This document shows positions 1 to 17,432 of a DNA stretch of 38,115 nt, one piece after another. Every line of letters begins with the position of its first letter. Positions within the stretch are counted from its first letter, which is position 1. The position numbers and the translations under genes are program-made. The notes beneath the pieces were generated by a model that was not told the DNA's origin, made no database searches, and saw only the letters and a program-made list of their open reading frames with translations. The stretch is from an uncultured bacterium (lineage in GTDB: Bacteria > Eisenbacteria > RBG-16-71-46). The stretch covers positions 1 through 38,115 of the forward strand of contig CAZKQE010000001.1 of NCBI GenBank assembly GCA_964554725.1, written 5' to 3'.

Positions 1-464
1 ACGACCCGTTCGCGATGCTGCCGTTCTGCGGCTACCACATGGGCGACTACTTCGCCCACTGGCTGCGGATGGGCGCGGGCGCGGACGCGAAGAAGCTGCC
101 GCGCATGTTCCACGTCAACTGGTTCCGCAAGGACGACGCGGGGCGGTTCCTGTGGCCCGGCTACGGCGAGAACAGCCGCGTCCTCAAGTGGGTGTTCGAG
201 CGGGTCACCGGCACCGGCCAGGCGGTGGACACGGCGATCGGCCGCCTGCCCGCGCCCGGGGCGCTCGACACCTCCGGCCTGGGGATCGCCGACGCCGCGC
301 TGGCGGAGCTGCTCAAGGTGGATGTCGAGGGCTGGCTCGCCGACCTGCCGCCCATCCGGACCCACTTCGACCGGTTCGGCGACCGGCTGCCGCCGGGCCT
401 GCGCGACGAGCTGGCGGCGCTCGAGAAGCGGCTCCAGACCGCCGCGGTCGGGGCGGGGCGCTAG
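1..464 (+). CDS. pckG: Phosphoenolpyruvate carboxykinase (GTP), C-terminal fragment (5' end outside window)
   Basis: The frame is open from the window edge. The translation DPFAMLPFCGYHMGDYFAHWL...FHVNWFRKD..GRFLWPGYGENSRVLKWVFERV matches the conserved C-terminal region of GTP-dependent PEPCK. Stop TAG is at 462-464. Confidence 0.9.
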   Translation, partial: DPFAMLPFCGYHMGDYFAHWLRMGAGADAKKLPRMFHVNWFRKDDAGRFLWPGYGENSRVLKWVFERVTGTGQAVDTAIGRLPAPGALDTSGLGIADAALAELLKVDVEGWLADLPPIRTHFDRFGDRLPPGLRDELAALEKRLQTAAVGAGR

Positions 465-514
465 CGGCCGCGAGAACGGCGCGACCGGGGCGCGCGGCGG
501 CGCATCGAAGGGAT

Positions 515-1450
515 ATGACGCCAGCGCCCGGACTCGCTGCGAGATCGTCCCCCGCGGACCTGGTCCGCCACGTGGGTGACACGCCGTTGCTGCCGGTCGC
601 CGGGCTCGAGGGCGTGCCGGACGGGGTCACGGTGCTGGGGAAGGCCGAGTGGCTGAACCCCGGCGGTTCGGTGAAGGACCGCGCGGCGCGGGCGATCGTC
701 GCGGCGGCGGAGGCGCAGGGCGCGCTCGCGGGCGGTCGCCGGCTGCTCGACGCCACCTCGGGCAACACCGGGGTCGCCTACGCGTGGATCGGCGCCGCCC
801 GCGGGTTCGGCGTGACCCTGTGCGTGCCGGCGAACGCGCGCCCCGCCCGCCGCCATGCGCTGGCGGCGCTGGGGGCCGAGGTGCGGCTCACCGACGCCAT
901 GGAGGGCACCGACGGCGCGATCCGCGAGGCGCGCCGGCTCGCGGCGGCGCGGCCGGACCTCTACTTCCACGCCGACCAGTACGCGAACCCCGCGAACTGG
1001 CGCGCGCACTACGAGGGCACGGCCGAGGAGATCTGGGCGCAGACCGGAGGCCGCGTCACCCACCTGGTCGCCGGGATCGGCACCTCGGGCACGCTGGTCG
1101 GGACCGCGCGGCGCCTGCGCGAGCGGAACCCGGAGCTGGTGGCGGTCGCGGTGCAGCCGGACTCGCCGCTCCACGCGCTCGAGGGTCTCAAGCACCTGGC
1201 GAGCGCGATCAGGCCTCCGATCTACGACCCGGAGGTCCACCAGGCGACGATCGAGGTCGCGAGCGAGGAGGCGATCGCCATGGTCCGCCGCCAGGCCCGC
1301 CGCGGGCTGCTGATGGGCTGGTCGGCCGGGGCGGCGCTGGTGGCGGCCGGGCGCGTGGCGCGCGGGCTCGCGCGCGGCGTGGTGGTGGCGATCCTGCCGG
1401 ACGGCGCCGGCAGCTACCTCGACGACCCGGCGTGGCGGGAGGACGCATGA
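515..1450 (+). CDS. cysM: Cysteine synthase, CysM-like (PLP-dependent; probably uses a thiocarboxylated carrier protein as sulfur donor)
   Basis: ATG 515 is the first start codon in this frame after the pckG stop; the upstream part of ORF 152..1450 overlaps pckG and is Arg/Gly-rich junk. Motifs present: GDTPLLPV, NPGGSVKDRAA (PLP lysine), TSGNTGVAYA, GIGTSGTL. The stop overlaps the next start (ATGA 1447-1450). Confidence 0.85.
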   Translation: MTPAPGLAARSSPADLVRHVGDTPLLPVAGLEGVPDGVTVLGKAEWLNPGGSVKDRAARAIVAAAEAQGALAGGRRLLDATSGNTGVAYAWIGAARGFGVTLCVPANARPARRHALAALGAEVRLTDAMEGTDGAIREARRLAAARPDLYFHADQYANPANWRAHYEGTAEEIWAQTGGRVTHLVAGIGTSGTLVGTARRLRERNPELVAVAVQPDSPLHALEGLKHLASAIRPPIYDPEVHQATIEVASEEAIAMVRRQARRGLLMGWSAGAALVAAGRVARGLARGVVVAILPDGAGSYLDDPAWREDA

Positions 1451-1917
1451 GCCTGGTCCTCCCGGCGGCGCTCGCCGGGCCGCTCCACGACCACCTGGTC
1501 CGCGCCTACCCCGAGGAGGGCTGCGGCGTGCTGGTGGGGCGCGACGAGGGGAGCCGTCGCGTGGTCGAGCGGGTGATCCCGGTCGAGAACGCGCGCGGCG
1601 ACTCGCGCGGCCGCCGGTACGTGATCCCGCCCGAGCGCATCCTGGTCGCCGAGCGCGAGGCGCGCGAGGCGGGCCTCGACGTGGTCGGCTTCTACCACTC
1701 GCACCCGGACCACCCGGCCCGTCCCTCGGCCTTCGACCTGGAGCACGCCTGGCCGTACTATTCGTACCTGATCGTGAGCGTGGCCGCGGGCCGCGTCGCC
1801 GAGGCGCGCGCCTGGCGCCTGGCGGCCGACCGCACGCGCTTCGAGCCCGAGCGCCTGGACGCCGCGCCGGCGCGGGAGTCGCCGGGTCGCGGCGCGGCAG
1901 CGGAGATCGGCCCATGA
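1447..1917 (+). CDS. mec: JAMM/MPN+ zinc metalloprotease (Mec-like, CysO-processing/deconjugating)
   Basis: 156 aa. The JAMM signature is complete: upstream Glu in PEEGCG plus HSHPDHPARPSAFD (HxHx7Sx2D). ATGA overlaps occur at both ends (1447-1450 and 1914-1917). Its position next to cysM and a CysO-like carrier mirrors the M. tuberculosis mec-cysO-cysM locus. Confidence 0.85.
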   Translation: MSLVLPAALAGPLHDHLVRAYPEEGCGVLVGRDEGSRRVVERVIPVENARGDSRGRRYVIPPERILVAEREAREAGLDVVGFYHSHPDHPARPSAFDLEHAWPYYSYLIVSVAAGRVAEARAWRLAADRTRFEPERLDAAPARESPGRGAAAEIGP

Positions 1918-3401
1918 CGCGACGGACGAGGATCCACATCCCGACCCCGCTGCGCCCCTACGTGGAGCGGCAGGCGGTGGTCGAGGTCGAGGGCGCGACG
2001 GTCGGCGCCGCACTGGCGGCGCTGGTCGAGCGCTACGGCGACCTGCGCCGCCACCTCTACGACGGGGAGGGCCGGCTGCGGCGCTACGTCAACGTGTACC
2101 GGAACGAGGAGGACATCCGGCACCTCGAGCGCGAGGACACACCGCTCTCCGGGGCGGACTCGATCTCGATCGTGCCCAGCATCGCCGGCGGCGCCGGGCC
2201 GGAGGCGCGCGGGCGCCCCGCGCCGCCCGACTGGGCGACCGGGGCGGACGGCCTGCCGCCGCTCTCGCAGGACGAGCTGCTCCGCTACAGCCGCCACCTG
2301 ATCCTGCCCGAGGTGCGGCTCGACGGGCAGCGGCGCCTGAAGGCGGCGAGCGTGCTGGTCGTCGGGACCGGCGGGCTCGGCTCGCCGCTCGCGCTCTACC
2401 TGGCGGCGGCGGGGGTGGGGCGCATCGGACTCGTGGACTTCGACCGCGTGGACGCGAGCAACCTCCAGCGCCAGATCCTCTACGGCACCGCGAGCGTCGG
2501 CCGCCCCAAGCTCGAGGCCGCGCGCGAGCGGCTCGCCGACCTCAACCCCGGCGTGCGCGTGGACCTCCACGAGGCGCGGCTCGCGAGCGACAACGCGATG
2601 GAGATCCTGGAGCCGTACGACGTGGTCGTGGACGGCACCGACAACTTCCCCACGCGCTACCTGGTCAACGACGCCTGCACGCTGCTGGGCAAGCCGAACG
2701 TGTACGGCAGCATCTTCCGCTTCGAAGGGCAGGCGAGCGTGTTCGACGCGCGGGTGGGGCCCTGCTACCGCTGCCTCTATCCCGATCCGCCGCCCCCCGG
2801 CCTGGTGCCCTCGTGCGCGGAGGGCGGGGTGCTGGGCGTGCTGCCCGGGGTCATCGGCGTGATCCAGGGGGTCGAGACGCTCAAGCTGCTGCTCGGGGTG
2901 GGGGAGTCGCTGGTGGGGCGCCTGCTGCTGTTCGACGCGCTCGCGCTGTCGTTCCGCGAGCTGGCGCTGCGCAAGGACCCCGAGTGCCCGCTGTGCGGAC
3001 CCCGGCGCACGATCACCGCGCTGGTGGACTACGAGGCGTTCTGCGGGCTGACGCCGGTCGAGCAGGCGGAGGCGGACGCGCGCGGCTGGGAGATCTCCGT
3101 GCGCGAGCTGGAGCAGCGCCTGTCGGGAGCGGAGCCGCCGCTGGTCGTCGACGTGCGCGAGCCGCACGAATGGGAGATCGCCCGTCTGCCGGGCGCGACC
3201 CTGATCCCGCTGAACACGCTGCCGGCCCGGGTCGCCGAGCTCGACAGCAGCCGCGAGATCGTCCTCCACTGCCACCACGGCCAGCGCAGCATGCGCGCGC
3301 TCGAGTTCCTGCGCGGCGCGGGGTTCCGCAAGCTGAAGAACCTGCGCGGCGGCATCGACGCCTGGTCGAAGGAGGTGGACCGCGGGGTGCCGCGGTACTG
3401 A
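1914..3401 (+). CDS. Fusion protein: CysO/ThiS/MoaD-like sulfur carrier (aa 1-93, ends IAGG) + MoeB/ThiF-type E1 adenylyltransferase + C-terminal rhodanese (MoeZ-like)
   Basis: A single uninterrupted 495-codon ORF. The N-terminus RIHIPTPLRPY...RYVNVYRNEEDIRH...SISIVPSIAGG resembles the 93-aa CysO; the GG codons are at 2187-2192. A linker follows, then LSQDELLRYSRHLILPEV, the GTGGLGS nucleotide loop, SCAEGGVLG, and the Zn CxxC pairs CYRC and CPLC. The rhodanese module has the active loop CHHGQRS. No ATG or GTG lies between the GG codons and the E1 core. Confidence 0.85.
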   Translation: MTRRTRIHIPTPLRPYVERQAVVEVEGATVGAALAALVERYGDLRRHLYDGEGRLRRYVNVYRNEEDIRHLEREDTPLSGADSISIVPSIAGGAGPEARGRPAPPDWATGADGLPPLSQDELLRYSRHLILPEVRLDGQRRLKAASVLVVGTGGLGSPLALYLAAAGVGRIGLVDFDRVDASNLQRQILYGTASVGRPKLEAARERLADLNPGVRVDLHEARLASDNAMEILEPYDVVVDGTDNFPTRYLVNDACTLLGKPNVYGSIFRFEGQASVFDARVGPCYRCLYPDPPPPGLVPSCAEGGVLGVLPGVIGVIQGVETLKLLLGVGESLVGRLLLFDALALSFRELALRKDPECPLCGPRRTITALVDYEAFCGLTPVEQAEADARGWEISVRELEQRLSGAEPPLVVDVREPHEWEIARLPGATLIPLNTLPARVAELDSSREIVLHCHHGQRSMRALEFLRGAGFRKLKNLRGGIDAWSKEVDRGVPRY

Positions 3402-3408
3402 GCGGCGG

Positions 3409-3428
3409 CGCCGGGCGCCCGGCGGTTT
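3409..3428 (+). terminator. Weak terminator-like GC palindrome after the cys operon
   Basis: A perfect 16-bp palindrome CGCCGGGCGCCCGGCG (3409-3424; 6-bp stem, 4-nt loop as RNA) is followed by GTTT, 8 nt after the stop codon. The U tract is short. Confidence 0.25.
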
Positions 3429-3462
3429 GAGCCGGGTCCCGTTCGGCGTTAAGGTCCGGGTC

Positions 3463-4950
3463 ATGCCGCCGTGCCGGACCCCCACCGCGTGCTCCACCCC
3501 CCGCCGCCCCCGATCGCGCGCGGCCGCGGCGCTGCTCGTCCTGCTCCTCGCCGGCTGCGCGACGAACCCGGTCACCGGACGTCGCGAGTTCTCGCTCGTG
3601 AGCCCGCAGCAGGAGGCGCAGATCGGGCGCGAGGGCTATGCCGCGGTGCTGGCGGAGTACGGCGCCTACGAGGACTCGACGCTCCAGCGCTACGTGCGCG
3701 ACATCGGCCTGCGCCTGGCGAAGGTCTCCCACCAGCCCGGCCTCGACTGGCACTTCACGGTGATCGACGACCCGAGCGTGAACGCGTTCGCGATGCCGGG
3801 CGGGTACATCTACATCACGCGCGGGATCCTCGCCCATCTCAACTCGGAGGCGCAGCTCGCCGGGGTGCTGGGGCACGAGATCGCCCACGTCACCCACCGC
3901 CACAGCGCCGCCCAGATCTCCCAGCAGCAGCTCGCCGGGCTCGGGCTCGGGGTGGCCTCGCTCCTCTCGGAGTCGGTGGCGCGCTACGGGCAGGTGGCCC
4001 AGCAGGCGCTCGGGCTCATGTTCCTCAAGTACAGCCGCACCCACGAGCACGAGTCCGACGAGTCGGGCGTCCTCTACGCCACCCGGGCCGGCTACGATCC
4101 GGCCGAGATCCCCGCCACCTACGGGATGTTGAAGCGGGTGAGCGACCGCGCCGGGCAGCGGCTGCCCGGGTTCCTCTCCACCCACCCCGATCCCGGCGAC
4201 CGCGAGGCGCGCACCGCCGAGCTGGCGCGCGCCGCGCGCGCGGGCGCCGACGGGCTGGTGGTGCGGCGCGACGAGTTCCTGGCGCGGATCGACGGCATGG
4301 TGTTCGGCGACGACCCGCGCGGCGGCTACTTCGAGGGCGACACCTTCCACCACCCGGCGATGGCGTTCACGATCACGTTCCCGACCGGCTGGCAGCGCGA
4401 GAACACGCGCAGCGCGGTGACCGCGGCGGCGCCCGAGCAGCGGGCCGTGATGCAGCTCTCGCTCGCCGACGCCGACGACCTCTCGCCGGCGGACTACGTC
4501 ACCCGGCTGTCGGGCAGCGGGCGCATCGCCGGCGCGCGCGGGGCGCCCGAGCGGATCGGCGGCTTCGCCGCCTGGGTGGGCCGGGTCGCGGTCGCGGGGG
4601 AGGGGGGCACCCAGCGCGTGCTCGCCGCCGCCTTCCTGCGCCGCGGTCCCGGGCGGATGATCCAGATCCTCGGCAGCAGCGGCGTCCCGGACGACGCGGA
4701 CTTCCAGCAGGTGCTGGCCGCCGCCCGCTCGTTCCGCGCGCTCACCGACGCGGCGCGCCTGGCGCCCGTCCCCTCGCGCCTGCGCGTGAGCCGGCTCGCC
4801 GCCGCGGCGCCGTTCGCGAGCGCGCTGGCGGGCCTCGGGCCGCAGGCGCTCGACGCGGAGCGGACGGCGATCCTCAACCATCGCGCGGTGGACGAGCGCC
4901 TGCCGGCGGGGACGCCGGTGAAGACCGTGACGCCGGCCCGGACCCACTGA
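3463..4950 (+). CDS. M48-family zinc metallopeptidase, lipoprotein (BepA/LoiP-like)
   Basis: ATG 3463 is preferred over the TTG at 3427. The signal peptide ends in the lipobox LLAGC. AFAMPGGYIYITRG and the zinc motif HEIAHVTHRH (HExxH) are typical of M48 peptidases. A C-terminal domain of about 250 aa has unknown function. Confidence 0.8.
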   Translation: MPPCRTPTACSTPRRPRSRAAAALLVLLLAGCATNPVTGRREFSLVSPQQEAQIGREGYAAVLAEYGAYEDSTLQRYVRDIGLRLAKVSHQPGLDWHFTVIDDPSVNAFAMPGGYIYITRGILAHLNSEAQLAGVLGHEIAHVTHRHSAAQISQQQLAGLGLGVASLLSESVARYGQVAQQALGLMFLKYSRTHEHESDESGVLYATRAGYDPAEIPATYGMLKRVSDRAGQRLPGFLSTHPDPGDREARTAELARAARAGADGLVVRRDEFLARIDGMVFGDDPRGGYFEGDTFHHPAMAFTITFPTGWQRENTRSAVTAAAPEQRAVMQLSLADADDLSPADYVTRLSGSGRIAGARGAPERIGGFAAWVGRVAVAGEGGTQRVLAAAFLRRGPGRMIQILGSSGVPDDADFQQVLAAARSFRALTDAARLAPVPSRLRVSRLAAAAPFASALAGLGPQALDAERTAILNHRAVDERLPAGTPVKTVTPARTH

Positions 4951-5061
4951 GCGATGGGCGCCCGCCGCTCGCCCCGGGCCGCCCGCGCGGCGACCCGCGT
5001 CCGCGTAGTGGCTTCTGCCCGTGGCCGTTCGCCGCACTATGTGCCGGGATTCACAACCGAT

Positions 5062-5090
5062 TTGACAGTCCCCGGACGGCGGCGTAGTTT
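5062..5090 (+). promoter_or_regulatory. Sigma70-like promoter candidate for the act operon
   Basis: TTGACA (5062-5067), a 17-nt spacer, then TAGTTT (5085-5090), all inside one of the very few AT-richer patches of the window. The -10 element ends 15 nt before the actA ATG, and no Shine-Dalgarno sequence lies in between. Confidence 0.4.
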
Positions 5091-5105
5091 GCGCCCGTCC
5101 GCGCC

Positions 5106-5636
5106 ATGAAACGATCCCTCGCCCTCATCCTCAGCGCCGTCGTCCTGGCGGCAGCCACGGTCGCTCTGACGCAGACGACCCCGGCGCCGGTCTATGGCGT
5201 GAAGGGGCCCGCCCAGCCGATCGCGTTCAGCCACGAGATCCATGCCGGCAAGCTCGGGATGGACTGCCTCTACTGCCACAGCAGCGCCGAGAAGTCCCAG
5301 ACCGCGAACCTCCCCGCGGTGAGCACCTGCATGGGCTGCCACAAGATCGCGCGCGCGGACCAGCCGGAGATCCAGAAGCTGGCCGGGTACGCGGAGCGCG
5401 GCGAGCCGGTGCCGTGGGTCGAGGTCTACGCGCTGCCGGCGCACGTCAAGTTCAACCACAAGCGGCACGTCAAGGCCGGGATCAAGTGCCAGGACTGCCA
5501 CGGCGCGGTGGAGAAGATGACGGTCGTCCACCAGGTGCCGTCGCTCAAGATGGGCTGGTGCGTCACCTGCCATCGCCAGAACCTCGACCACCCGAAGTTC
5601 CCGGCCAGCATGGACTGCCTGGTCTGCCACCACTAG
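5106..5636 (+). CDS. actA: Alternative Complex III subunit ActA, pentahaem cytochrome c
   Basis: 176 aa with an N-terminal signal/anchor. Five CxxCH motifs are present (CLYCH, CMGCH, CQDCH, CVTCH, CLVCH). It is the first gene of an actABCDEF-ordered cluster. Confidence 0.9.
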   Translation: MKRSLALILSAVVLAAATVALTQTTPAPVYGVKGPAQPIAFSHEIHAGKLGMDCLYCHSSAEKSQTANLPAVSTCMGCHKIARADQPEIQKLAGYAERGEPVPWVEVYALPAHVKFNHKRHVKAGIKCQDCHGAVEKMTVVHQVPSLKMGWCVTCHRQNLDHPKFPASMDCLVCHH

Positions 5637-5644
5637 GGGCGCGC

Positions 5645-8600
5645 GTGTCTGATCCCGTCGTCTTCAACCGTCGTGACTTCCTGAGGCTGGTCGGCATCGG
5701 CGTGGCCGGGACCGCCGCCGGCTGCGCGACCCCGCAGGCCGACCGGCTGATCCCGTACCTGGTCGCCCCCAACGACATCATGCCCGGCGTCGCCTACTGG
5801 TACGCGAGCACCTGTCGCGAGTGCCCGGCGGGGTGCGGCACGCTGGTCAAGGCGCGCGAGGGCCGGGCGATCAAGATCGAGGGCAACCCCGAGCACCCGG
5901 TGAACCAGGGCGGCCTGTGCGCGCGCGGACAGGCGGGCCTGCAGGGCCTCTACGACCCCGACCGCCTGCGCACTCCGATGGTGAAGGACGGCGGGGCGTG
6001 GAAGGCGATCTCCTGGGACGAGGGGCTGGCGCTGGCCGCCGGCAAGCTGGGCGAGGCGCAGCGGGCGCGGCGCGGGGTGGCACTGATCACCGACCACGTC
6101 ACCGGGTCGCTCCACCGGCTGGCGGCCGAGTGGGCCGCCGCCGCCTCCGCCACCCACCTGGTCTACGAGCCGTTCGCCCACGAGAGCCTGCGCGAGGCGA
6201 ACCGGCGCACCTTCGACCGGGCGACCGTGCCGGCGTTCGACTTCGCCCGCGCCCGCTGCCTGATCTCGTTCGGCGCCGACTTCCTCGAGACCTGGCTGTC
6301 GCCGGTCGGGCACGCGCGGGGCTTCGCCGCGATGCGCGCCCGTCGCGACGGATCGGGCCGCTTCGTCTCGGTCGAGCCGCGGCTGTCGCTCACCGGCGCC
6401 AACGCCGACGAGTGGGTGGCGATCCGGCCCGGGACCGAGGCGGTCCTCGCGCTCGGCATGGCGCGCGTCATCCTGAGCGACGGACTGGGGCCGGCGGTCG
6501 CGGAGCGCGGGCGCCTGCTCGAGACGGTCGCGCCCTACACCCCGGAGGCGGTGGAGCGCGACACCGAGGTGCCGGCGGCGACCGTCGAGCGGCTGGCGAG
6601 GATGTTCGCCGCCGACCGTCCGAGCCTGGCGGTCGCGGGCGGCATCGCCGCCCAGAGCGAGCAGTCGGTGGCGCTCCACGCCGCGGTCAACCTGCTGAAC
6701 TACGCCACCGGGAACGTGGGCGAGACCGTGCGGTTCGACCGCACGCCCGACTTCGACGCGGTGGGGTCGTTCGCCGACCTGCAGCGGGTCATCGCCGACC
6801 TGTCGGCGGGCCGGGTGGACGTGCTGGTCGTGCACGGCGCGAACCCCGTCTACGCGACGCCGCCGTGGGCGGGATTCGCGGCGGCGATGGAGAAGGTGCC
6901 GTTCAAGCTCTCGCTCTCGGGCGTGCTGGACGAGACCAGCGATCACTGCGACCTGATCCTCCCTTCGACCCATCCGCTCGAGACCCTCGGCGACGCCGAG
7001 CCCGCGCGCGGCGTCCTCGCGATCGTCCAGCCGGCGATGCAGAAGGTGCCGCTGTTCGACGCGCGCCCGACCGGGGACACGCTGCTCGCGCTCGCGCAGG
7101 GCGCCGGCTTCGGCGAGCGCCTCCCCGCCGACTGGGCGACCTATCTGCGGGACCGCTGGCGGCCGCTCCACCAGCGCTTCGGCGCCGGCCGCGACTTCGA
7201 CACGTTCTGGAACGAGACCCTGAAGACGGGCGGGATCTGGGAGACGGTCGCCTCGCCCGCGGTCCGCTGGGTGGGCGCCCCCGCCTTCGCCGTCCCCGAG
7301 CTGAAGGGCGCCGGCGACCTGACGCTGCTCGTCTACCCGTCGAGCACGATGTACGACGGCCGCGGCGCCAACAAGTCATGGCTCCAGGAGCTGCCCGACC
7401 CGACCAGCAAGGCGGTGTGGGGGAGCTGGGCCGAGATCCATCCGGAGACCGCGGCGAAGCTCGGCGTGCGCAACGGCGACCCGGTGCGGGTGGAGACCGG
7501 CGCCGGCCGCCTCGAGCTGCCGGCCTATCTCTACGCCGGCCTGCGCAAGGACGTCGTCGCCATCCCGCTCGGGCAGGGTCACACCGCCTACGGCCGCACC
7601 GCGGCCGGCCGCGGCGTGAACGCCGCCGCCCTGCTGGTCGAGGCGCAGGACGCCGCCTCCGGCGCGGTGGCGTACCTGAGCGCGCGCGCCACGGTGACCC
7701 GCGCCGCCTCCGCCGGCACCCTGGTGATGACCCAGCCGGAGAAGCGGCAGCACGAGCGCGGGTTCGCGCAGGTGATCCCGCTCGCCGCCCTGCTCGGCAC
7801 GACCGGGTCGGGTCACGCCGCCCCGGGCGCCCACGGCGGCGCCGCCGCGCACCGCGAGGTGCACCCGTCGCAGACCCGGCCCGGCCGCCACACGACGCCG
7901 CTCCAGCGCGACCCGGACGCGAAGACGCCCGCGCACGCGATCACCGCCTACCAGCCCGAGCACCCGGCGCGCGGCCCGCGCAACATCCCGATCTCGTCCG
8001 GGAGCTACGCCCGCGCCGAGCATCGCTGGGCGATGGCGATCGACCTCGACTCGTGCACCGGCTGCAGCGCGTGCATCGTCGCCTGCAGCGCCGAGAACAA
8101 CGTGCCGACCGTGGGCCCGGAGCTCATCAAGCGCGGGCGCGAGATGCTGTGGATCCGGGTCAACCGGGTCGAGGAGCACCTGGCGCCGGGCGCCAGCGAC
8201 GTGCGCTTCGTGCCGATGATGTGCCAGCACTGCGGCGACGCCCCGTGCGAGACCGTGTGCCCGGTGTACGCGACCTATCACAATCCCGAGGGGCTCAACG
8301 CCCAGGTCTACAACCGCTGCGTCGGCACGCGATACTGCTCGAACAACTGTCCGTACAAGGTGCGCGCGTTCAACTTCTTCGACTACGCCGCGCCCGAGAA
8401 GCCGACCTTCGCGTTCCCCGAGCCGCTGAACTGGCAGCTGAACCCGGACGTGACGGTGCGGAACAAGGGCGTCATGGAGAAGTGCACGATGTGCGTCCAG
8501 CGCATCCTCGAGGGCAAGGGGATCGCCAAGGACGAAGAGCGCAAGCCCCGGGACGGTGAGATCCAGACCGCCTGCGCCCAGTCGTGCCCGACCCGGGCGA

Positions 8601-8756
8601 TCGTGTTCGGCGACCTCGCCGACCCCGAGAGCGCCGTGCACAAGGCGTCCCACGGCGAGCGGCGGTACTGGGCGCTCAACGAGCTGAACACCAAGCCCGG
8701 CGTCACCTACCTGCAGCGGATCCGGCGCGGGACCGGCGCCGTCGAGGAGCAGCCGC

Positions 8757-8764
<8 letters not shown>
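5645..8764 (+). CDS. actB: Alternative Complex III subunit ActB (fused B1 molybdopterin-oxidoreductase-like domain + B2 4-cluster ferredoxin domain)
   Basis: GTG start at 5645, 5 nt after AGGGG. The Tat signal is NRRDFLRLVGIG. The N-terminal CRECPAGCG...CARG is a MopB-type FeS motif. The C-terminal Cys clusters are CTGCSACIVAC, CQHCGDAPCETVCP and CVGTRYCSNNCPY. The upstream part of ORF 5414..8764 overlaps actA and is discarded. Confidence 0.9.
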
Positions 8765-10093
<1,329 letters not shown>

Positions 10094-10097
<4 letters not shown>

Positions 10098-10657
10098 AGC
10101 TCCCGAAGCCGCTCCTCGACCTGGTGGACGCGATCAACGCCGGCCCGCGGATGAAGTACCGCGGCGTGATGGGCGTGTTCTACTACGTGGACGACGTCGC
10201 CGAGACGGTGCGCACGCTGCGCCAGAGCGGCCACCGGGACCTGCGGGTGTTCTCCCCGGTGCCCCATCACGACATCGAGCGCGCGCTCGAACAGGGGCCG
10301 TCGATCGTGCGCTGGGTCACCCTCGGCGGCGCCCTGCTCGGCGTCACCGGCGGGCTCTCGCTGTGCTTCTACTCGGTCTACTCGTGGCCGCTGGTGGTCG
10401 GCGGCAAGGAGCTGTTCTCGCTGCCGCCGTTCGTCGTCATCGGCTACGAGTCCATGATCCTGCTCGGTTCGCTCGCGAACCTGTTCGGCATGCTGGCGCT
10501 GGCGCGGCTGCCGGAGCTCCGCACCTCCGCGCCGCCCGACCCGCGCTTCACCGAGGACCGCATCGGCGTGTGGGTGCCGTGCGAGGGCGAGGCCGCCGCG
10601 CGCGTGCAGGAGCTGCTGCGCGGGCACGGCGCCGAGGAGGTCACCCTCCATGCTTAG
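10094..10657 (+). CDS. actD: Alternative Complex III subunit ActD (DUF3341-like, two TM helices)
   Basis: The start ATG 10094 overlaps the actC stop (ATGA). Sequence MKLPKP...YRGVMGVFYYVDDVAETVRTLRQSGH... has a soluble N-domain followed by two hydrophobic helices. Its position between actC and actE fits ActD. Confidence 0.8.
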
Positions 10658-11195
10658 GAGCGTGATCGCCCTGGTCGCGGCCGCGATCCTCACCCTGTTC
10701 GCCGTCCCCAGCTTCCAGCAGGGGTTCAAGGACGCCGTGAACTCGCTCACCCACCTCGCCTACTATCCGATCCGCGACATGCGGAAGTCGGTGGCGCCGT
10801 CGCCGCAGAAGGGCGTCTACCGGACGCCGGACGAGGCGAGCGTCCCCACCACCGGGAAGGAGCCGGCGATCGACCGCGACCTCGCGGCGACCGTGCTGCG
10901 CAACCCGGTCCCGACCAGCGACGCCTCGGTCGCGCGCGGCGATTCGCTCTACCGTCGCCTGTGTCTGCCGTGCCACGGCGCCGCGCTGGCGGGGGACGGC
11001 CCGGTGGCCGCTCAGTTCATGCCGCCGCCCGACCTGCTCGGGCAGCAGACGCGCGAGCGCCGGGACGGGTTCCTCTATTCCTACATCCGGCACGGCGGCG
11101 TCGTCATGCCGAGCTACGGCTTCCAGCTCAGCGCCGAGGAGGCATGGCACATCGTGAACTTCATCCGTCACCATCAGAAGGCGACCCCGCGGTGA
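10650..11195 (+). CDS. actE: Alternative Complex III subunit ActE, monohaem cytochrome c
   Basis: 181 aa with an N-terminal anchor and a single CLPCH haem motif; the distal Met region is GGVVMPSYG. There is an 8-nt overlap with actD. Confidence 0.85.
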   Translation: MLRSVIALVAAAILTLFAVPSFQQGFKDAVNSLTHLAYYPIRDMRKSVAPSPQKGVYRTPDEASVPTTGKEPAIDRDLAATVLRNPVPTSDASVARGDSLYRRLCLPCHGAALAGDGPVAAQFMPPPDLLGQQTRERRDGFLYSYIRHGGVVMPSYGFQLSAEEAWHIVNFIRHHQKATPR

Positions 11196-12478
11196 GCCAC
11201 GCCCCGACCCCGGTGCCCGCGGCCGAGCGCGAGGCCGTGCTCAAGGACATCGCCGGCCGGCTGCCGGTCACGCCGAACCCCCGCCGCCGTCGCATCTGGG
11301 TGGCGCTCATGGCGGTCGGCATCGTCACCTTCGGCTGGCTGCTGATGACGCAGCCGGAGCGGGCGTGGGGCGCCTGGGCGATCAACTGCCTGTACTGGCT
11401 CGGGATCGCCCAGGGCGCGGTGGTGCTGGCGTGCGCGATCCGGCTCGCGAACGGACGCTGGGCGGGCCCGGTGATGCGCATGGCGGAGTCGCTCTCGGCC
11501 TTCCTGCCCTGGGGGGTCGCCGCGCTCGCCGTGCTGGCGGTCGCCGGCGCGCGGCAGTACCTGCCGTGGATCGAGCATCCGGATGCGCGCCAGGCGCCCT
11601 ATCTCAACTGGCCGTTCCTGGTGCTGCGCACCCTCGCCGGCCAGGCGCTGCTGCTGTGGATGACGCGCGACCTGGTGCGCCTCTCGCTGCGCAGCGACGC
11701 CCACCATCTCAAGGACCACGTGGCCCCCGAGCTCAAGCCCGACTACGAGCGGCTGAGCGCCGGCTGGCGGGGCGACGAGGCGGAGGAGGCGTGGCAGCGT
11801 CACCGTCTCTCGCAGCTCGCGCCCGGCATCGTCGTCGCCTACGCGGTGGTCTACACGCTGCTCGCGTGGGACTTCGTCATGTCGCTGACGCCCGAGTGGG
11901 TGAGCACGCTGTTCGGCTGGTGGTTCTTCATGGGCGCCTTCCTGAGCGGGATCGCGATGACGGCGCTGCTGGTGTCGCGGCTCCGCTCGCGCTACCAGCT
12001 CCACCGCTACATCACGCCCGCCCACCTGTGGGACACCGGCAAGATCGCCTTCGGCTTCTGCATCTTCTGGGTCTACCAGTTCTGGTCCCAGTACCTGCCG
12101 ATCTGGTACGCGAACATGCCGGAGGAGACCGGCTGGGTGTTCCTGCGCTTCGAGGCGCCGTGGCGGACGCTCGGCTTCACGATCTTCACGTTCGTGTTCC
12201 TGGTGCCGTTCCTGGGACTGATGAACATCCACACCAAGCGCAGCCCGTTCTGGCTCGGCACCTTCTCGATCATCATCCTGATCGGCATGTGGATGGAGCG
12301 GCACATCCTCGTCATGCCGTCCCTGAACCCCGACCACGTCTGGATGGGCCTCCCCGAGCTGGGCGTCTCGCTCGGGTTCCTCGGGCTGTTCGGCTGGCGG
12401 GTGCACAACTTCGTCTCGCGCTACCCGATCGTGAAGGTGCCGGACGTCTTAGCCGGCCACGGAGGGCACGGGCACTAG
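11192..12478 (+). CDS. actF: Alternative Complex III subunit ActF (second NrfD-like membrane subunit)
   Basis: The GTG at 11192 overlaps the actE stop (GTGA). A polytopic membrane protein paralogous in character to ActC. Contains the only in-frame TTA codon I found in the window (12449-12451). Confidence 0.85.
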   Translation: MSHAPTPVPAAEREAVLKDIAGRLPVTPNPRRRRIWVALMAVGIVTFGWLLMTQPERAWGAWAINCLYWLGIAQGAVVLACAIRLANGRWAGPVMRMAESLSAFLPWGVAALAVLAVAGARQYLPWIEHPDARQAPYLNWPFLVLRTLAGQALLLWMTRDLVRLSLRSDAHHLKDHVAPELKPDYERLSAGWRGDEAEEAWQRHRLSQLAPGIVVAYAVVYTLLAWDFVMSLTPEWVSTLFGWWFFMGAFLSGIAMTALLVSRLRSRYQLHRYITPAHLWDTGKIAFGFCIFWVYQFWSQYLPIWYANMPEETGWVFLRFEAPWRTLGFTIFTFVFLVPFLGLMNIHTKRSPFWLGTFSIIILIGMWMERHILVMPSLNPDHVWMGLPELGVSLGFLGLFGWRVHNFVSRYPIVKVPDVLAGHGGHGH

Positions 12479-12578: not shown

Positions 12579-12663
12579 GCCGGGATGGTGGAACTGGTCA
12601 GACACAGGGCGCTTAAAACGCCCCGGGGGTGACCCCGTGCAGGTTCGAGTCCTGCTCCCGGCA
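12579..12663 (+). tRNA. tRNA-Leu (anticodon UAA), class II with long variable arm
   Basis: Hand-folded cloverleaf. The acceptor GCCGGGA pairs with TCCCGGC and the discriminator is A. The D stem is GTG/CAC with GG in the loop. The anticodon stem is GGCG G/CGCCC with loop CTTAAAA, placing the anticodon TAA at 12614-12616. The variable arm is GGGG-GTGA-CCCC. The T arm is GCAGG-TTCGAGT-CCTGC. CCA is not fully encoded (the sequence continues CCG). Confidence 0.92.
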
Positions 12664-12718
12664 CCGCGGACCCCGGACCGGCGCGGCCGATACGGCCGGG
12701 CGCCCGGCCCGCTGCGGT

Positions 12719-14233
12719 ATGATGCGCGACATGCCCGTCTCCCCGCTCCCCGCCCCGCCGCCCGCCGCGGCACGCGCACTGCGGTCCCCCGGCGCCGTCC
12801 TGCTCGTCTCCTGCTACGAGCTCGGGCATCAGCCGCACGGGATCGCCCTGCCCGCCGCGTTCCTGCGCCGGGCCGGCTTCGCGCCGGCGACCCTCGATCT
12901 GGCGGTCGAGCCGCTCGACCCGGTCCGGGTCCGCGGGGCGCGGCTGGTCTGCGTCTCGGTGCCCATGCACACCGCGCTGCGGCTCGGCGTGCGTGCGGTG
13001 GCCGGGATCCGCGCCCTCAACCCCGCGGCTCACGTCTGTTTCCACGGGCTCTACGCCGCGCTCAACGCCTCGTGGCTGCTCGAGCACGGGGCGGACTCGG
13101 CGGTGGGGGGCGAGAGCGAGGCGGCGCTGGTCGCGCTCGCCGAGGCGCTGGACGACGGCCGGCCGCCGCGGGTGCCGGGCCTGGCGGTGCGCGGCCGCGC
13201 GGCCGCCCCGCGGCTCGAGCGGCTCGACTTCCCGCCGCCGGTCCGCGACGGGATGCCGCCGCTCGAGCGCTACGCGCGGCTCGAGCACCGGGGGGAGCGC
13301 GTCCGGGTCGGCTACGTCGAGACGACCCGCGGCTGCCGGCACCTGTGCCGGCACTGCCCGATCCCGCCGGTCTACGGCGGCCGCCTGTTCGTGGTGCCGG
13401 TGGCGACGGTGATGGCGGACGTGGAAGGGCTGGTGGCGGCGGGCGCCCGGCACGTCACCTTCGGTGACCCGGACTTCCTCAACGCCCCGACCCACGCGCT
13501 GCGGGTGGCGCGCGCGCTCCACGCGCGGCATCCGGCGCTGACGTTCGACTTCACGGCGAAGATCGAGCATCTGCTTCGGCATCGCGCGCGGCTCCCCGAG
13601 CTGGTCGCGGCCGGCGCGCTGTTCGTGGTCTCGGCGGTCGAGTCGCTCAGCGACCGCGTGCTCGACCACCTCGGCAAGGGGCACACGCGGGCGGACGTGT
13701 TCGAGGCGCTGCGGCTCACCCGTGCCGCGGGGCTCGCGCTGCGGCCGTCGCTGGTCGCCTTCACGCCCTGGACCACGCTCGACGACTACCTCGACGTGCT
13801 CGAGGTCGTGGAGCGCGAGGACCTGGTGGACCATCTGGACCCGGTGCAGTACTCGATCCGGCTGCTGGTGCCGCCCGGGTCGCTGCTGCTCGACCACGCC
13901 GCGCTCCGGCCCTTCCTCGGGCCCTTCGACCCGGCCTCGTTCGGCCACCCGTGGACCCACCCCGACCCGCGGATGGACGCGCTCCACCGCGCGGTCGCCG
14001 ACCGTGTCGCCGCCGCGGGCGCGGCCGGGGAGGACGCGCGCGCCACATTCCTCGCGGTGCACGCGCTGGCGCGCGCCGCGGCGGGCAGGCCGGCGCGGTC
14101 GTCGGACGGGGCGGAGGACGCGGCGGCGCGGCGCCGGCGCGTGCCGCGGCTCACCGAGCCGTGGTTCTGCTGAGCGGAGCCCGCCGAGGGCCGGTTCGGC
14201 CCTCTCGCGACCCCCGGGACCCCCGCCGCATGA
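12719..14233 (+). CDS. Radical SAM protein with B12-binding-like N-domain; probable selenoprotein with C-U-A-E-P tail (UGA 14171-14173 read as Sec; conventional call would end at 14173)
   Basis: ATG 12719 is the first start after the tRNA; ORF-track start 12629 lies inside the tRNA. The CxxxCxxC motif is TTRGCRHLCRHCP. The N-terminal Rossmann-like region is LLVSCYELGHQP...LVCVSVPMH. At the apparent stop the codons read TGC TGA GCG GAG CCC (C-U-A-E-P), and the frame stays open to TGA 14231-14233. Confidence 0.75.
14186..14204 (+). promoter_or_regulatory. SECIS-like stem-loop
   Basis: A perfect hairpin GAGGGCC-GGTTC-GGCCCTC begins 12 nt after the in-frame UGA, with G and U in the apical loop. 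The geometry is compatible with bacterial SECIS elements. Confidence 0.5.
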
Positions 14234-14301
14234 CGGCGTCCCGGCGGCGGGCGCGCCGCGCGCCGGACATGGTAGGGTAGGCCGCGACCCGAGGAGGCCC
14301 C

Positions 14302-14901
14302 GTGAGCGAGCAGGAGATCCGCATCAAGGCCGTGCCGATCGACGCCCAGCGCTGCCGGTTCACCGTGGACCGGCCGGTGCTGGCGGACCGCGCCGTGTTC
14401 TTCCCCGCGGTCGGCAAGGCGGCGGGCTCCCCGCTCGCCGAGGCGCTGTTCGCGCTCCCCGGCGTCTCGGCGGTGCTGGTGTCGCACGACACCGTGACCG
14501 TGACCCGTTCGGGCTACGGGGAATGGCCGGAGCTGGCGCGCCAGGTGGGGGCCGCGATCCGCGCCCAGATGCAGACCGGCGCCGCGCCGGTCGCGGCCGA
14601 CGCGCTCGCGAGCATGCCGGGCGAGGAGGAGATCCGCGCCCGCGTCGAGCGCCTGCTCGAGACCGAGATCAACCCGGCGGTCGGCTCGCACGGCGGCTGG
14701 GTCGAGCTGCTCGGCGTCCAGGGCAACAACGTGTTCCTGCGGCTCGGCGGCGGCTGCCAGGGCTGCGGCATGGCGGACGTCACGCTGAAGCAGGGGATCG
14801 AGACGCTGCTGCGGCAGGAGATCCCCGAGCTGGGCGAGGTGCTGGACCAGACCGATCACGCCGCCGGCCGGAACCCCTACTACGCCCAGTCGAAGAAGTA
14901 G
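14302..14901 (+). CDS. NFU1/NfuA-type iron-sulfur cluster carrier (Nfu_N domain + NifU C-terminal CxxC domain)
   Basis: GTG start at 14302, preceded by GAGGAGG (14291-14297). The N-domain has SPLAEALFALPGVSAVLVSHDTVTVT. The C-domain has EINPAVGSHGGWVELL...LGGGCQGCGMA (CxxC). Confidence 0.85.
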   Translation: MSEQEIRIKAVPIDAQRCRFTVDRPVLADRAVFFPAVGKAAGSPLAEALFALPGVSAVLVSHDTVTVTRSGYGEWPELARQVGAAIRAQMQTGAAPVAADALASMPGEEEIRARVERLLETEINPAVGSHGGWVELLGVQGNNVFLRLGGGCQGCGMADVTLKQGIETLLRQEIPELGEVLDQTDHAAGRNPYYAQSKK

Positions 14902-14905
14902 CCGC

Positions 14906-16222
14906 ATGACCGTCGCCCGCCCCCATCCCGCCCCGCCGGAGGACCGCCGCAACGCCCCGCGGGTGCTGCTGCTGCTGCCGACCGCCTCGTGGCGGGCCGA
15001 GGCGCTGCTCGCCGCCGCCGCGCGGCTCGGCCTTGCGGCGGTGGTGGGGACCGACCGGCCCCTGGTGTGGGCGGAGCGCACCCCGGAGCGGGTGATCTCG
15101 CTCGACTTCGACCGGCCGGAGGCGGCGGCCGCGGCGGTCGCCGCGTTCGCCGCCGGGCGTCCGATCGCCGCGGTGGTGGGGGCCGACGACGAGACGGTCG
15201 CGCTGGCGGCGGCGATCGCCGGCCGGCTCGGGCTCGCGCACGACCCGGTCGCCGCACTCGCCGCCACGCGCGACAAGCTCCGCCAGCGCGAGATCCTCGC
15301 CGACGCCGGCCTCCCGGTGCCGCGGTTCGCGCGCTGCCGCCTCGACGAGGCCCCGGCCGCGGTCGCCGCCCGGGTGGGGCTCCCGTGCGTGCTCAAGCCC
15401 CGGCGCCTGTCGGCGAGCCGCGGGGTGATGCGCGCGGACGACGTGGCCGGGCTCGGCGCGGCGATGCGCCGGCTCGCCGCGCTGCTCGCCTCGCCCGCGG
15501 TCGGGGCGTGCGGCGAGTGGGCGGAGACCGCGGTCGCGGAGGCGTTCGTCCCCGGGCGGGAGGTGGCGCTCGAGGGCATGCTGCACGAGGGCCGCCTGCG
15601 GGTGCTCGCCCTGTTCGACAAGCCCGACCCGCTCGACGGGCCGACGTTCGAGGAGACGCTCTACGTCACCCCCTCGCGGCTGCCGGCCGCGGCGCAGGCG
15701 GCGCTCGCCGACACCGTCCAGCGCGCGACCCGTGCGCTCGGGCTCGCCCGCGGGCCGGTCCACGCCGAGCTGCGGATCGCGGGCGAGGCGCCGTGGCTGA
15801 TCGAGGTGGCGGCCCGCCCGATCGGCGGCCTGTGCTCGCGGGTCCTGCGCTTCGACGGCGGACGCTCGCTCGAGGAGCTCACGCTGATGTCGGCGCTCGG
15901 CCGCGACCCCGGCGGCATCGCCCGCGAGGCGGGGGCGGCCGGCGTGATGATGGTCCCCATCCCCGGGGCCGGCGTGGTGGAACGGGTCGAGGGCGTCGCC
16001 GAGGCCGCGGCGGTGCCCGGGATCGACCAGGTCGTCGTCACCGCCCATCCCGGCGAGCGGCTGACACCGTTCCCCGAGGGGTCGCGCTATCCCGGCTTCC
16101 TGTTCGCCCGGGGCGCGACGCCGGACACGGTCGAGGCCGCGTTGCGGGAGGCGCACCGGCGCCTGCGCTTCGTGCTCGCGGCGGAGCCGTCGCCCGCGGA
16201 CGCCGCGGTGGCGTCCGGATGA
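14906..16222 (+). CDS. ATP-grasp domain protein (carboxylate-amine / L-amino-acid-ligase-like)
   Basis: 438 aa. The pre-ATP-grasp region is VLLLLPT...AVVGADDETV. ATP-grasp signatures are DKLRQREILADAGLPVP, PCVLKPRRLSASRGV, EAFVPGREVALEG and GPVHAELRI...PWLIEVAARPIGG. It starts 4 nt after the nfu stop. Confidence 0.8.
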   Translation: MTVARPHPAPPEDRRNAPRVLLLLPTASWRAEALLAAAARLGLAAVVGTDRPLVWAERTPERVISLDFDRPEAAAAAVAAFAAGRPIAAVVGADDETVALAAAIAGRLGLAHDPVAALAATRDKLRQREILADAGLPVPRFARCRLDEAPAAVAARVGLPCVLKPRRLSASRGVMRADDVAGLGAAMRRLAALLASPAVGACGEWAETAVAEAFVPGREVALEGMLHEGRLRVLALFDKPDPLDGPTFEETLYVTPSRLPAAAQAALADTVQRATRALGLARGPVHAELRIAGEAPWLIEVAARPIGGLCSRVLRFDGGRSLEELTLMSALGRDPGGIAREAGAAGVMMVPIPGAGVVERVEGVAEAAAVPGIDQVVVTAHPGERLTPFPEGSRYPGFLFARGATPDTVEAALREAHRRLRFVLAAEPSPADAAVASG

Positions 16223-16797
16223 GCCGGTCCCGCGCGCCCGGCGGCCGGCGCCTCGTCGTCGGGCTGGCGCTCGCGCTGCTGCCGTGCGCCGGCTGCGCCG
16301 CCCCGCCCCCCGAGCCGCCGCCGGCGGTCGAGCCGACGGCGGAGATCCGGCCGGCCACCGTGGCCCAGGTGCAGTCCGCCGTGCGGGCCGGCGGGGCCCG
16401 TGCCGTGCTGCTGAACGTGTGGGCGACCTGGTGCGTGCCGTGCCGGGAGGAGTTCCCGGACCTCATGCGCATCCGGCGCGAGTACCGGGAGCGCGGCCTG
16501 CGGCTGGTGCTGGTCTCGGCGGACATCGACAGCCAGGTCCCCGAGGCGCAGCGCTTCCTGCGGTCGCAGGGGGTCGATTTCTTGACCTATCTCAAACAGG
16601 GTGCTGACATGGCGTTCATCGACAGCATCGATGCTCGCTGGAGCGGTGCGCTGCCCGCCACCGTCCTCTACGACGAGGCGGGCCGCAAGGTCTGGTTCCA
16701 CGAAGGCAGGACCACGTACGACACGTTGAAGGTCCGGATCGACGCGCTGCTCTCCGCCGCGCGGCGACCGGCACGTCCGACCGAGGAGGCGAGATGA
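16219..16797 (+). CDS. TlpA/ResA-like thiol:disulfide oxidoreductase, probable lipoprotein
   Basis: ATG 16219 overlaps the ATP-grasp stop (ATGA). The signal peptide has a Cys-containing cleavage region LLPCAGC. The thioredoxin motif is WATWCVPC. Confidence 0.8.
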   Translation: MSRSRAPGGRRLVVGLALALLPCAGCAAPPPEPPPAVEPTAEIRPATVAQVQSAVRAGGARAVLLNVWATWCVPCREEFPDLMRIRREYRERGLRLVLVSADIDSQVPEAQRFLRSQGVDFLTYLKQGADMAFIDSIDARWSGALPATVLYDEAGRKVWFHEGRTTYDTLKVRIDALLSAARRPARPTEEAR

Positions 16798-17432
16798 ACC
16801 CGAGTGCGATCCGGTGGGTGGCGGCAGGGATGCTGATGTTGGCGGCGACCGCGGGGGCGCAGGAGGCTCCCAAGGCGCTGGCGATCGGGAAGAGCGCGCC
16901 GATGGCCACCGCGAAGATGACCGGCGTGGACGGCAAGGCGGTGTCGATCGCCGACGTCAAGGGCGAGAAGGGGACGCTGGTGGTGTTCACCTGCAACTCC
17001 TGCCCGTGGGTGAAGGCCTGGGAGTCGCGCATCACGGAGCTCGGCAACACGTACCTGAAGCAGGGCGTCGGCGTCATCGCCATCAACCCCAACGACCCGG
17101 CGGTGAAGGCCGACGACGACATGGCGGCGATGCAGGAGCGGGCGAAGATGCTGGGGCTCGAGTTCCCCTACGTGATGGACGCCACCTCGGACGTGGCGCG
17201 CGCCTTCGGCGCCACCCGCACCCCCGAGGCCTTCCTGTTCGACGCCAAGGGCAAGCTGGTGTACCACGGAGCGGTGGACGACAACGCCCACAAGCCGGCC
17301 GAGGTCACCGCGCGCTGGCTGAACGACGCGCTGGCGGCCACCGCGAGCGGCAAGCCGGTGGCGATCCGCGAGACCAAGTCGCTCGGCTGCACGATCAAGT
17401 TCCGCGGCAAGGCGGCGACCAGCGCCTCGTAG
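16794..17432 (+). CDS. Exported thioredoxin-fold (redoxin/AhpC-TSA-like) protein
   Basis: ATG 16794 overlaps the previous stop (ATGA). The signal peptide ends AATAGAQEA. The CxxC motif is VVFTCNSCPWV. The conserved tail is GATRTPEAFLFDAKGKLVYHGAVDDN. Confidence 0.8.
   Translation: MNPSAIRWVAAGMLMLAATAGAQEAPKALAIGKSAPMATAKMTGVDGKAVSIADVKGEKGTLVVFTCNSCPWVKAWESRITELGNTYLKQGVGVIAINPNDPAVKADDDMAAMQERAKMLGLEFPYVMDATSDVARAFGATRTPEAFLFDAKGKLVYHGAVDDNAHKPAEVTARWLNDALAATASGKPVAIRETKSLGCTIKFRGKAATSAS

Follow-up and report, generated by a model that had tools for sequence, protein, structure and literature searches.

We report here on a gene for a radical S-adenosylmethionine (SAM) enzyme in a 38,115-nucleotide (nt) stretch of DNA from an uncultured member of the Eisenbacteria (contig CAZKQE010000001.1 of assembly GCA_964554725.1), the whole of which is referred to below as the window. 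An in-frame UGA codon at positions 14171 to 14173 of this gene is almost certainly read as selenocysteine (Sec, or U in one-letter code), as judged from comparison of homologous sequences. Taken as a whole, the explanation that we favor, with a probability of about 0.88, is that the gene product, 503 residues long, belongs to the CUAEP/CCAEP-tail radical SAM family, that the UGA of the gene is recoded to Sec by means of a hairpin, and that the resulting C-terminal tail plays a role like that of the tail of ArsL. The selenoprotein family is already curated (NF040546) and has been noted in the literature, and the window gene is a mis-truncated, unannotated member of it rather than a new phenomenon. 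In the literature searched, what appear to be undescribed are the covarying selenocysteine insertion sequence (SECIS) of the UGA forms, the approximately 3:1 ratio of U to C forms across phyla, and the conserved gene cassette with its explicit analogy to ArsL.

Comparative evidence at the UGA codon

In the reading frame of the radical SAM gene, the codons TGC-TGA-GCG-GAG-CCC (Cys-UGA-Ala-Glu-Pro; positions 14168 to 14182) open with the last Cys of the run ...R-L-T-E-P-W-F-C, and the tail reads ...EPWFCUAEPAEGRFGPL.... An earlier note on this DNA, made from the letters alone, had proposed probable Sec recoding at this site, and its positions for the codons, the 19-codon extension, the stop at 14231 to 14233, and the hairpin at 14186 to 14204 are all exact in the sequence. 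It had also warned that ordinary gene callers would drop 20 C-terminal residues, and this is borne out by the public copy of the protein (P0001), which is 483 amino acids (aa) long and ends at WFC, cut at the UGA.

A scan of GTDB species-representative genomes recovered 80 loci, and the codon after W-F-C was readable in 78 of these, making 79 sequences with the window. The phyla represented include the Rokubacteria/Methylomirabilota, Planctomycetota, Acidobacteriota, Gemmatimonadota, Nitrospirota, Eisenbacteria, Thermomicrobiales, Myxococcota, and Poribacteria. The codon in question is TGA in 59 of the 79 sequences and TGC or TGT in the other 20, and in every locus the frame runs on for 10 to 31 codons past it. 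The tail that follows has the consensus A-E-P-T-x-x-Q-[F/L]-x-P-L, which is common to the U and C forms, and the same tail follows a natural CC in two proteins from metagenomes (P0022 and P0074). Alignment with the CCAEP homologues, which the earlier note had proposed as a check, places the UGA on Cys (Table 1). Nor do the homologues end at WFC without a conserved tail, an outcome that the note had named as a refutation; the tail is kept as protein in both forms.

The manner in which the tail varies is also informative. Just 3' of the UGA, the 56 distinct TGA-type sequences differ from one another at third codon positions, with little or no change at the first and second. The Ala codon (GCN) ends in G in 47 sequences, A in 5, and C in 4; the Glu codon (GAR) ends in G in 52 and A in 4; and the Pro codon (CCN) ends in C in 24, G in 18, T in 8, and A in 6. 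On the evidence of these alignments, such a third-position pattern past the UGA marks the sequence as translated and kept by purifying selection.

These data bear directly on the simplest alternative, namely, that UGA 14171 is an ordinary stop, that a 483-aa protein ends in ...EPWFC, and that the downstream conservation belongs to a noncoding element. Gene callers and RefSeq do end the protein there (P0001 and the coding sequence of Thermomicrobium roseum), TGA is the usual stop codon in the window, and no Sec machinery was found within its 38 kb. However, a noncoding element does not account for 10 to 31 open codons in every locus, a conserved peptide, and a synonymous pattern of third-position change; homologues with a Cys codon read through into the same peptide, the curated hidden Markov model (HMM) of the family includes the tail, and there is no terminator. 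We therefore regard an ordinary stop as quite improbable.

Had the TGA arisen from a TGC codon by recent inactivating mutation, or by a mistake in sequencing or assembly, the gene would be a pseudogene or an artifact. TGA is indeed one base from TGC, and the contig is metagenome assembled, but 58 other loci, spread over many phyla, share TGA at this codon, including that of the isolate T. roseum DSM 5159, whose genome is finished, and the hairpin always accompanies it. The comparative data effectively refute this alternative, to which we assign next to no probability.

Two loci are unusual at or near this codon. In a metagenome-assembled genome of the Planctomycetota (L063, positions 5972 to 5977), TGA TGA replaces TGC TGA (possibly W-F-U-U-A-E-P) and the hairpin is intact, representing either a Sec-Sec dipeptide or a sequencing error. 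In a locus from the Acidobacteria (L023, positions 2372 to 2422), there is a 1-nt indel in the tail (AEPLRTSLV...) and a strong hairpin is kept; this is probably an assembly error.

Conservation and covariation of the hairpin

Across the TGA loci, the register of the hairpin is constant, the end of the 5' arm being 22 nt from the U of the UGA. Its stem has 5 to 7 bp in 53 of 55 distinct TGA-type sequences, and its loop is AGUU or AGUUN. We examined covariation in an alignment of the 39 TGA-type sequences with a 5-nt loop, in which 88.6% of the stem cells are paired and five of the seven pairs change on both sides. Compensatory cells number 42, versus 12.9 ± 2.7 in column shuffles (none of 500 shuffles reached the observed value), and sliding the 3' arm by 1 to 3 columns leaves pairing at only 22 to 59%. 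In some of the compensations, a nonsynonymous change in the 5' arm (Gly to Asp, GGC to GAC) is matched by a synonymous one in the 3' arm (GGC to GGU), and such coupled arm changes point to selection acting on the RNA.

The hairpin also distinguishes the two codon types. At the same register, the stem averages 6.19 bp in TGA loci versus 1.7 bp in Cys loci (P = 3e-11), and the mean local folding energy is -13.3 versus -4.5 kcal/mol (P = 9e-11), P values that overstate independence because Nitrospirota make up 19 of the 20 genomic Cys loci. The stem is also absent from three further independent Cys lineages, i.e., L029 (Vicinamibacterales), P0022/L083, and P0074/L085. The earlier note would have counted a lack of hairpin conservation at orthologous loci as a refutation; instead, loci with a UGA codon, and only these, keep the hairpin and show compensatory changes in it.

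It might be argued that the hairpin has no function at the RNA level and is a by-product of the codons for a conserved E-G-Q-F-G-P-L. The CAG-UUN of the loop encodes an invariant Gln-Phe/Leu in U and C forms alike, GGC and CCN codons are self-complementary, and such stems are frequent in GC-rich sequence. Nevertheless, the Cys forms retain Q-[FL]-x-P-L and yet lose the stem (mean of 1.7 versus 6.2 bp), and a nonsynonymous change on one arm (GGC to GAC) is compensated by a synonymous third-position change on the other (GGC to GGU). A by-product of codon usage is thus a very improbable explanation.

The SECIS-like hairpin of the window

In the window, the hairpin begins 12 nt past the UGA and carries G and U in its apical loop, as the earlier note had described, with a UGA-to-loop spacing of 19 nt. 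ViennaRNA folds it into an 8-bp stem with a GUU loop at -14.8 kcal/mol. The published model of the bacterial SECIS (bSECIS) specifies an apical loop of 3 to 9 nt, a stem of 4 to 16 bp, a UGA-to-loop distance of 16 to 37 nt, and an energy of -7.5 kcal/mol or lower, with a G required within the first two loop positions, followed by G or U (PMC13188914). The window hairpin lies within these limits on every count (loop GGUUC, or GUU as folded, in agreement with the G rule; 7 to 8 bp; 19 nt; -14.8 kcal/mol). The agreement with a SECIS model that the earlier note had proposed as a check holds for the published bSECIS criteria but not for Rfam, in which no SECIS model matches. A reading of the hairpin as an intrinsic terminator was ruled out, there being no U-run after it.

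The SECIS of Escherichia coli fdhF has an 11-nt spacer, a GGUC loop in which G23 and U24 contact SelB, and a bulged U17. The window hairpin resembles it as a stem-loop within the coding region just 3' of the UGA, with a 12-nt rather than an 11-nt spacer and a small loop with G and then U (G24/U25). Unlike fdhF, its stem is without a bulged U and the loop of the family is AGUU(N), not GGUC; binding of SelB is a prediction.

Several observations weigh against Sec recoding by this hairpin. Shuffled versions of the 76-nt segment fold equally well (z = -0.04), and a stem of at least 7 bp that complies with the SECIS rules follows 13.5% of the 637 TGA triplets of the window (both strands), so that in a window of 74% GC the hairpin alone is within chance. 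Its significance must therefore come from comparison, i.e., from covariation and from its absence in Cys loci, and here the contrast between TGA and Cys loci is phylogenetically clustered, with the Nitrospirota predominance already described. Rfam returned no SECIS or other credible RNA family, either in a gathering-threshold scan of the whole window or in a permissive scan of positions 14120 to 14300. The window loop opens with G, whereas A stands at this position in 55 of 56 distinct homologues; the G arises because Arg (CGG) replaces a near-invariant Gln (CAG). In addition, CAG-UUN of the loop serves as the codons for the invariant Gln-Phe/Leu, and conservation of the loop, unlike that of the stem, may be constrained by the protein. 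Finally, none of selA, selB, selD, and tRNA-Sec is present in the 38-kb window, which is the entire contig.

Selenocysteine decoding in related genomes

No tRNA-Sec was found in 60 related loci either. A tblastn search of the related loci with E. coli SelD and SelB as queries (the SelB query is 99.5% identical to annotated E. coli selB) gave matches to selD only, in the three Blastocatellia loci L014, L016, and L025. In these loci, selD is found 2 to 9 kb upstream of the radical SAM gene; its match to TIGR00476 reaches 324 bits (cutoff, 125), and it holds an in-frame UGA of its own (S-C-A-G-U-A-A-K). Because the adjoining selD itself carries an in-frame UGA, the genomes of L014, L016, and L025 must decode Sec, and Sec decoding, as read from their sequences, must be present in at least some TGA-type genomes.

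The surroundings in these Blastocatellia (L014, positions 4656 to 9850; also L016 and L025) are of interest in themselves. There the cassette adjoins the Sec-containing selD, a MerA/RclA-like flavin adenine dinucleotide disulfide oxidoreductase gene, and an EgtB-family gene, which scores 482 bits to EgtB and 356 bits to the selenoneine synthase SenA, below the SenA cutoff. This is a possible selenium-metabolism neighborhood.

A CU-form gene is also found in an isolate with a finished genome, T. roseum DSM 5159 (L081, positions 5932 to 7440; NC_011961.1, positions 796552 to 798027, minus strand). The codons up to its UGA encode ...ESWFC, the frame past the UGA reads AEPLEDPSGPVASQVRMVDQPLR, and its hairpin folds at -16.6 kcal/mol with a GUC loop. 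The RefSeq coding sequence is likewise cut at the UGA. In terms of annotation, the public protein, most homologues, and the T. roseum coding sequence all lose the Cys-Sec tail from which the family takes its name.

We envisage that, at the UGA, the hairpin 12 nt downstream (with G-U about 21 to 22 nt after the UGA) would recruit SelB-GTP-Sec-tRNA(Sec) and that Sec would be inserted directly after Cys483. The ribosome would then melt the hairpin, read 19 codons, and stop at UGA 14231, which has no SECIS.

A different route to the same extended protein would be read-through of the UGA without Sec, by a near-cognate Trp or Cys tRNA or a suppressor tRNA, with the hairpin merely stimulating it. Stem-loops 3' of stop codons can promote read-through, and the lack of Sec machinery in the 38-kb window suits this alternative as well. 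On the other side, the position is strictly Cys in homologues without UGA, which is the classical Sec/Cys signature; the position and loop of the hairpin fit the rules for a SelB-type bSECIS; and a Sec-containing SelD is encoded in related TGA-type genomes. The genetic code is not reassigned, because TGA is the ordinary stop of 14 of the 20 window genes, including the radical SAM gene's own terminator 20 codons on. Read-through without Sec accordingly seems highly improbable, and decoding as Sec is the reading that we retain below.

Family membership and relationship to ArsL

The earlier note had pointed to a curated family defined by a CUAEP or CCAEP tail. This family exists as NCBIfam NF040546 ("CUAEP/CCAEP-tail radical SAM (seleno)protein"), and the window protein, queried as a 500-aa translation from ATG 12731 with U written as C, scores 681.2 bits against it (curated cutoff, 500; E = 7e-205). 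The match spans positions 1 to 465 of the 468-position profile, running through and beyond U, and the window protein has the B12-binding-like N-terminal domain, the CxxxCxxC core, and the C-terminal C-U-A-E-P of the family, from which it shows no defining difference. Within the tail, it departs from the homologues in having Ala at +4 (usually Thr) and Arg at +7 (near-invariant Gln). The family has been named, in a single line, among the CU-motif selenoproteins (Haft & Gwadz, bioRxiv 10.1101/2022.07.06.499078). The name CUAEP is absent from the main text of a 2026 review of the prokaryotic selenoproteome.

Other selenoproteins with a CU dipeptide are HgcA variants, MerB-like SAO proteins, and MerT variants, in which Cys-Sec has been proposed to contact a heavy metal atom (Haft & Gwadz, bioRxiv 10.1101/2022.07.06.499078). 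The window protein shares the adjacent Cys-Sec pair with these proteins, but folds and contexts are unrelated, and its CU sits in the flexible C-terminal tail of a radical SAM enzyme.

The second-best HMM match of the window protein is the ArsL family (NF040542, RCCLKC-tail), at 293.6 bits (E = 3e-87), below the cutoff of 450. A member of the RCCLKC-tail family is 36% identical to the window protein over 405 aa that take in the B12-like and radical SAM domains, and the profile match ends at position 408 of 423, short of the ArsL tail. From these sequence relationships, the CUAEP/CCAEP enzymes are clearly a sister family of ArsL. ArsL, which acts in arsinothricin biosynthesis, cleaves SAM to a 3-amino-3-carboxypropyl (ACP) radical, and the cysteines of its C-terminal RCCLKC bind As(III); when the tail cysteines are removed or mutated, C-As bond formation is lost and SAM cleavage is unaffected (10.1101/2024.02.01.577332; 10.64898/2026.04.29.721666).

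In ArsL and the window protein alike, the C-terminal tail carries vicinal soft-ligand residues (CC or CU). The tail of the window protein, however, is C-U-A-E-P and not RCCLKC, with two soft ligands rather than three, and about 55 extra residues of a variable linker precede it. The loci differ as well, the neighbors in this family being Nfu, ATP-grasp ligase, or DUF169 genes, and the window holds no ars genes.

By homology and gene context, the Cys-Sec tail most likely plays the part of the ArsL tail, in that it would hold a soft metalloid or chalcogen substrate at the active site or serve there as a redox-active arm. By analogy with ArsL, presentation of such a substrate is probably the role of the tail, in preference to that of a simple redox pair, although the two are not exclusive, and the tail is probably essential for activity. 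Of the "Cys-Sec redox pair" put forward in the earlier note, the Cys-Sec dipeptide is supported, and the redox role is one option, with homology to ArsL favoring a tail that binds the substrate or metalloid. Also by homology and gene context, the adjacent Nfu may supply an Fe-S cluster, and the adjacent ATP-grasp enzyme, of the amino-acid-ligase type, may process an amino-acid-like product.

We speculate further that the CU-tail enzymes might be Sec-dependent, ArsL-like noncanonical radical SAM enzymes that transfer a 3-amino-3-carboxypropyl group from SAM to a metalloid or chalcogen atom held by the tail (As, Sb, Se, or Te, or a persulfide or perselenide), with the unusual amino acid so formed being ligated by the co-conserved ATP-grasp enzyme. 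This scheme, drawn by analogy, is in our judgment unlikely as a whole. That selD and an EgtB/SenA-like gene adjoin the cassette in the three Blastocatellia loci is a hint that the substrate is selenium. If true, the scheme would imply a Sec-dependent pathway forming carbon-metalloid or carbon-selenium bonds, for which homology and context are the support, and a widespread, undescribed route to organo-metalloid or organoselenium amino acids or dipeptides in soil and groundwater phyla (i.e., the Rokubacteria, Planctomycetota, Acidobacteriota, Gemmatimonadota, and Nitrospirota). Together, the SECIS, the U:C distribution, and the cassette with its kinship to ArsL amount to a concrete biochemical hypothesis that is testable in the culturable T. 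roseum DSM 5159.

An RCCLKC-tail gene on plasmid pBEH3 of Priestia filamentosa (L082, positions 421 to 9206) is accompanied by ArsR, ArsN1, a MIP channel, an arsenic transporter, and an ATP-grasp gene. A partner of the ATP-grasp type shared between ArsL-type and CU-type loci was not accepted as evidence, the ATP-grasp proteins of L082 and the window being only 22% identical.

Gene organization and neighborhood

The features of the gene and its immediate neighbors are listed in Table 1. The start codon was taken as in the database protein P0001, with alternative in-frame ATGs at 12719 and 12731, and the GC content at third codon positions is 0.96 in the frame of the gene. The Radical_SAM core (PF04055) scores 46.9 bits in the window protein. 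A search of PDB found no close solved structure for the protein (best E = 1e-6). A search for other in-frame-UGA genes in the window yielded none that is credible, a weak negative in that the filter also missed the true case (Ala-rich upstream).

Table 1. Features of the radical SAM gene and its downstream neighbors (positions in the window)
Feature	Positions	Strand	Remarks
Predicted full-length CUAEP-tail radical SAM selenoprotein gene	12722..14233	+	503 aa including Sec
N-terminal B12-binding-like domain	12800..13138	+	Pfam PF02310; marginal, 32.7 bits versus cutoff of 32.1
Radical SAM [4Fe-4S] motif CxxxCxxC (C-RHL-C-RH-C)	13334..13357	+	Cysteines invariant in homologue alignment
Cys codon TGC of the Cys-Sec dipeptide	14168..14170	+	TGC/TGT in 55/56 distinct TGA-type sequences
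In-frame UGA, almost certainly read as Sec	14171..14173	+	Cys at this position in 20 genomic loci, P0022, and P0074
19-codon tail AEPAEGRFGPLATPGTPAA past the UGA	14174..14230	+	Missed by gene callers
SECIS-like hairpin GAGGGCC-GGUUC-GGCCCUC	14186..14204	+	Arms 14186-14192 and 14198-14204; loop GGUUC 14193-14197
Predicted true stop TGA of the radical SAM gene	14231..14233	+	Most window genes (14 of 20) stop at TGA
Nfu-type Fe-S carrier gene (Nfu_N and NifU domains)	14302..14901	+	Conserved downstream neighbor
L-amino-acid-ligase-type ATP-grasp gene	14906..16222	+	Most frequent conserved neighbor

Among the 54 loci with enough flanking sequence, genes adjacent to the radical SAM gene encode an ATP-grasp enzyme in 32, an Nfu-type protein in 18, and a DUF169 protein in 17. 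Nfu is also adjacent in L083 and L085. In the latter (positions 108 to 3145), which encodes the Cys-form protein P0074, an IscA/HesB-type gene for Fe-S biogenesis and a zf-CDGSH gene precede the radical SAM gene and Nfu follows it, adding to the Fe-S theme. No ars genes (arsM, arsR, or arsN) were found in the window.

The only tRNA in the window is a tRNA-Leu(UAA) at 12579 to 12665, directly upstream of the radical SAM gene. In another Eisenbacteria locus (L002), a tRNA-Leu(UAA) at 8038 to 8125 likewise precedes the homologue, by about 1.9 kb, which suggests local synteny.

Farther out in the window, the ATP-grasp gene is followed by two consecutive thioredoxin-fold genes (positions 16225 to 17432; TlpA/ResA-like, with WCVPC and CNSCPW motifs). 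Positions 33345 to 35996 hold an 883-aa candidate open reading frame in a GC-rich stretch, with no match in Pfam or NCBIfam. Upstream of the radical SAM gene, positions 5066 to 12478 contain an alternative-complex-III-like or Qrc-like set. Its genes encode a subunit in which molybdopterin-like and 4Fe-4S parts are fused, a membrane subunit resembling DsrP/NrfD, a cytochrome c, and a membrane protein of 505 aa that matched no family.

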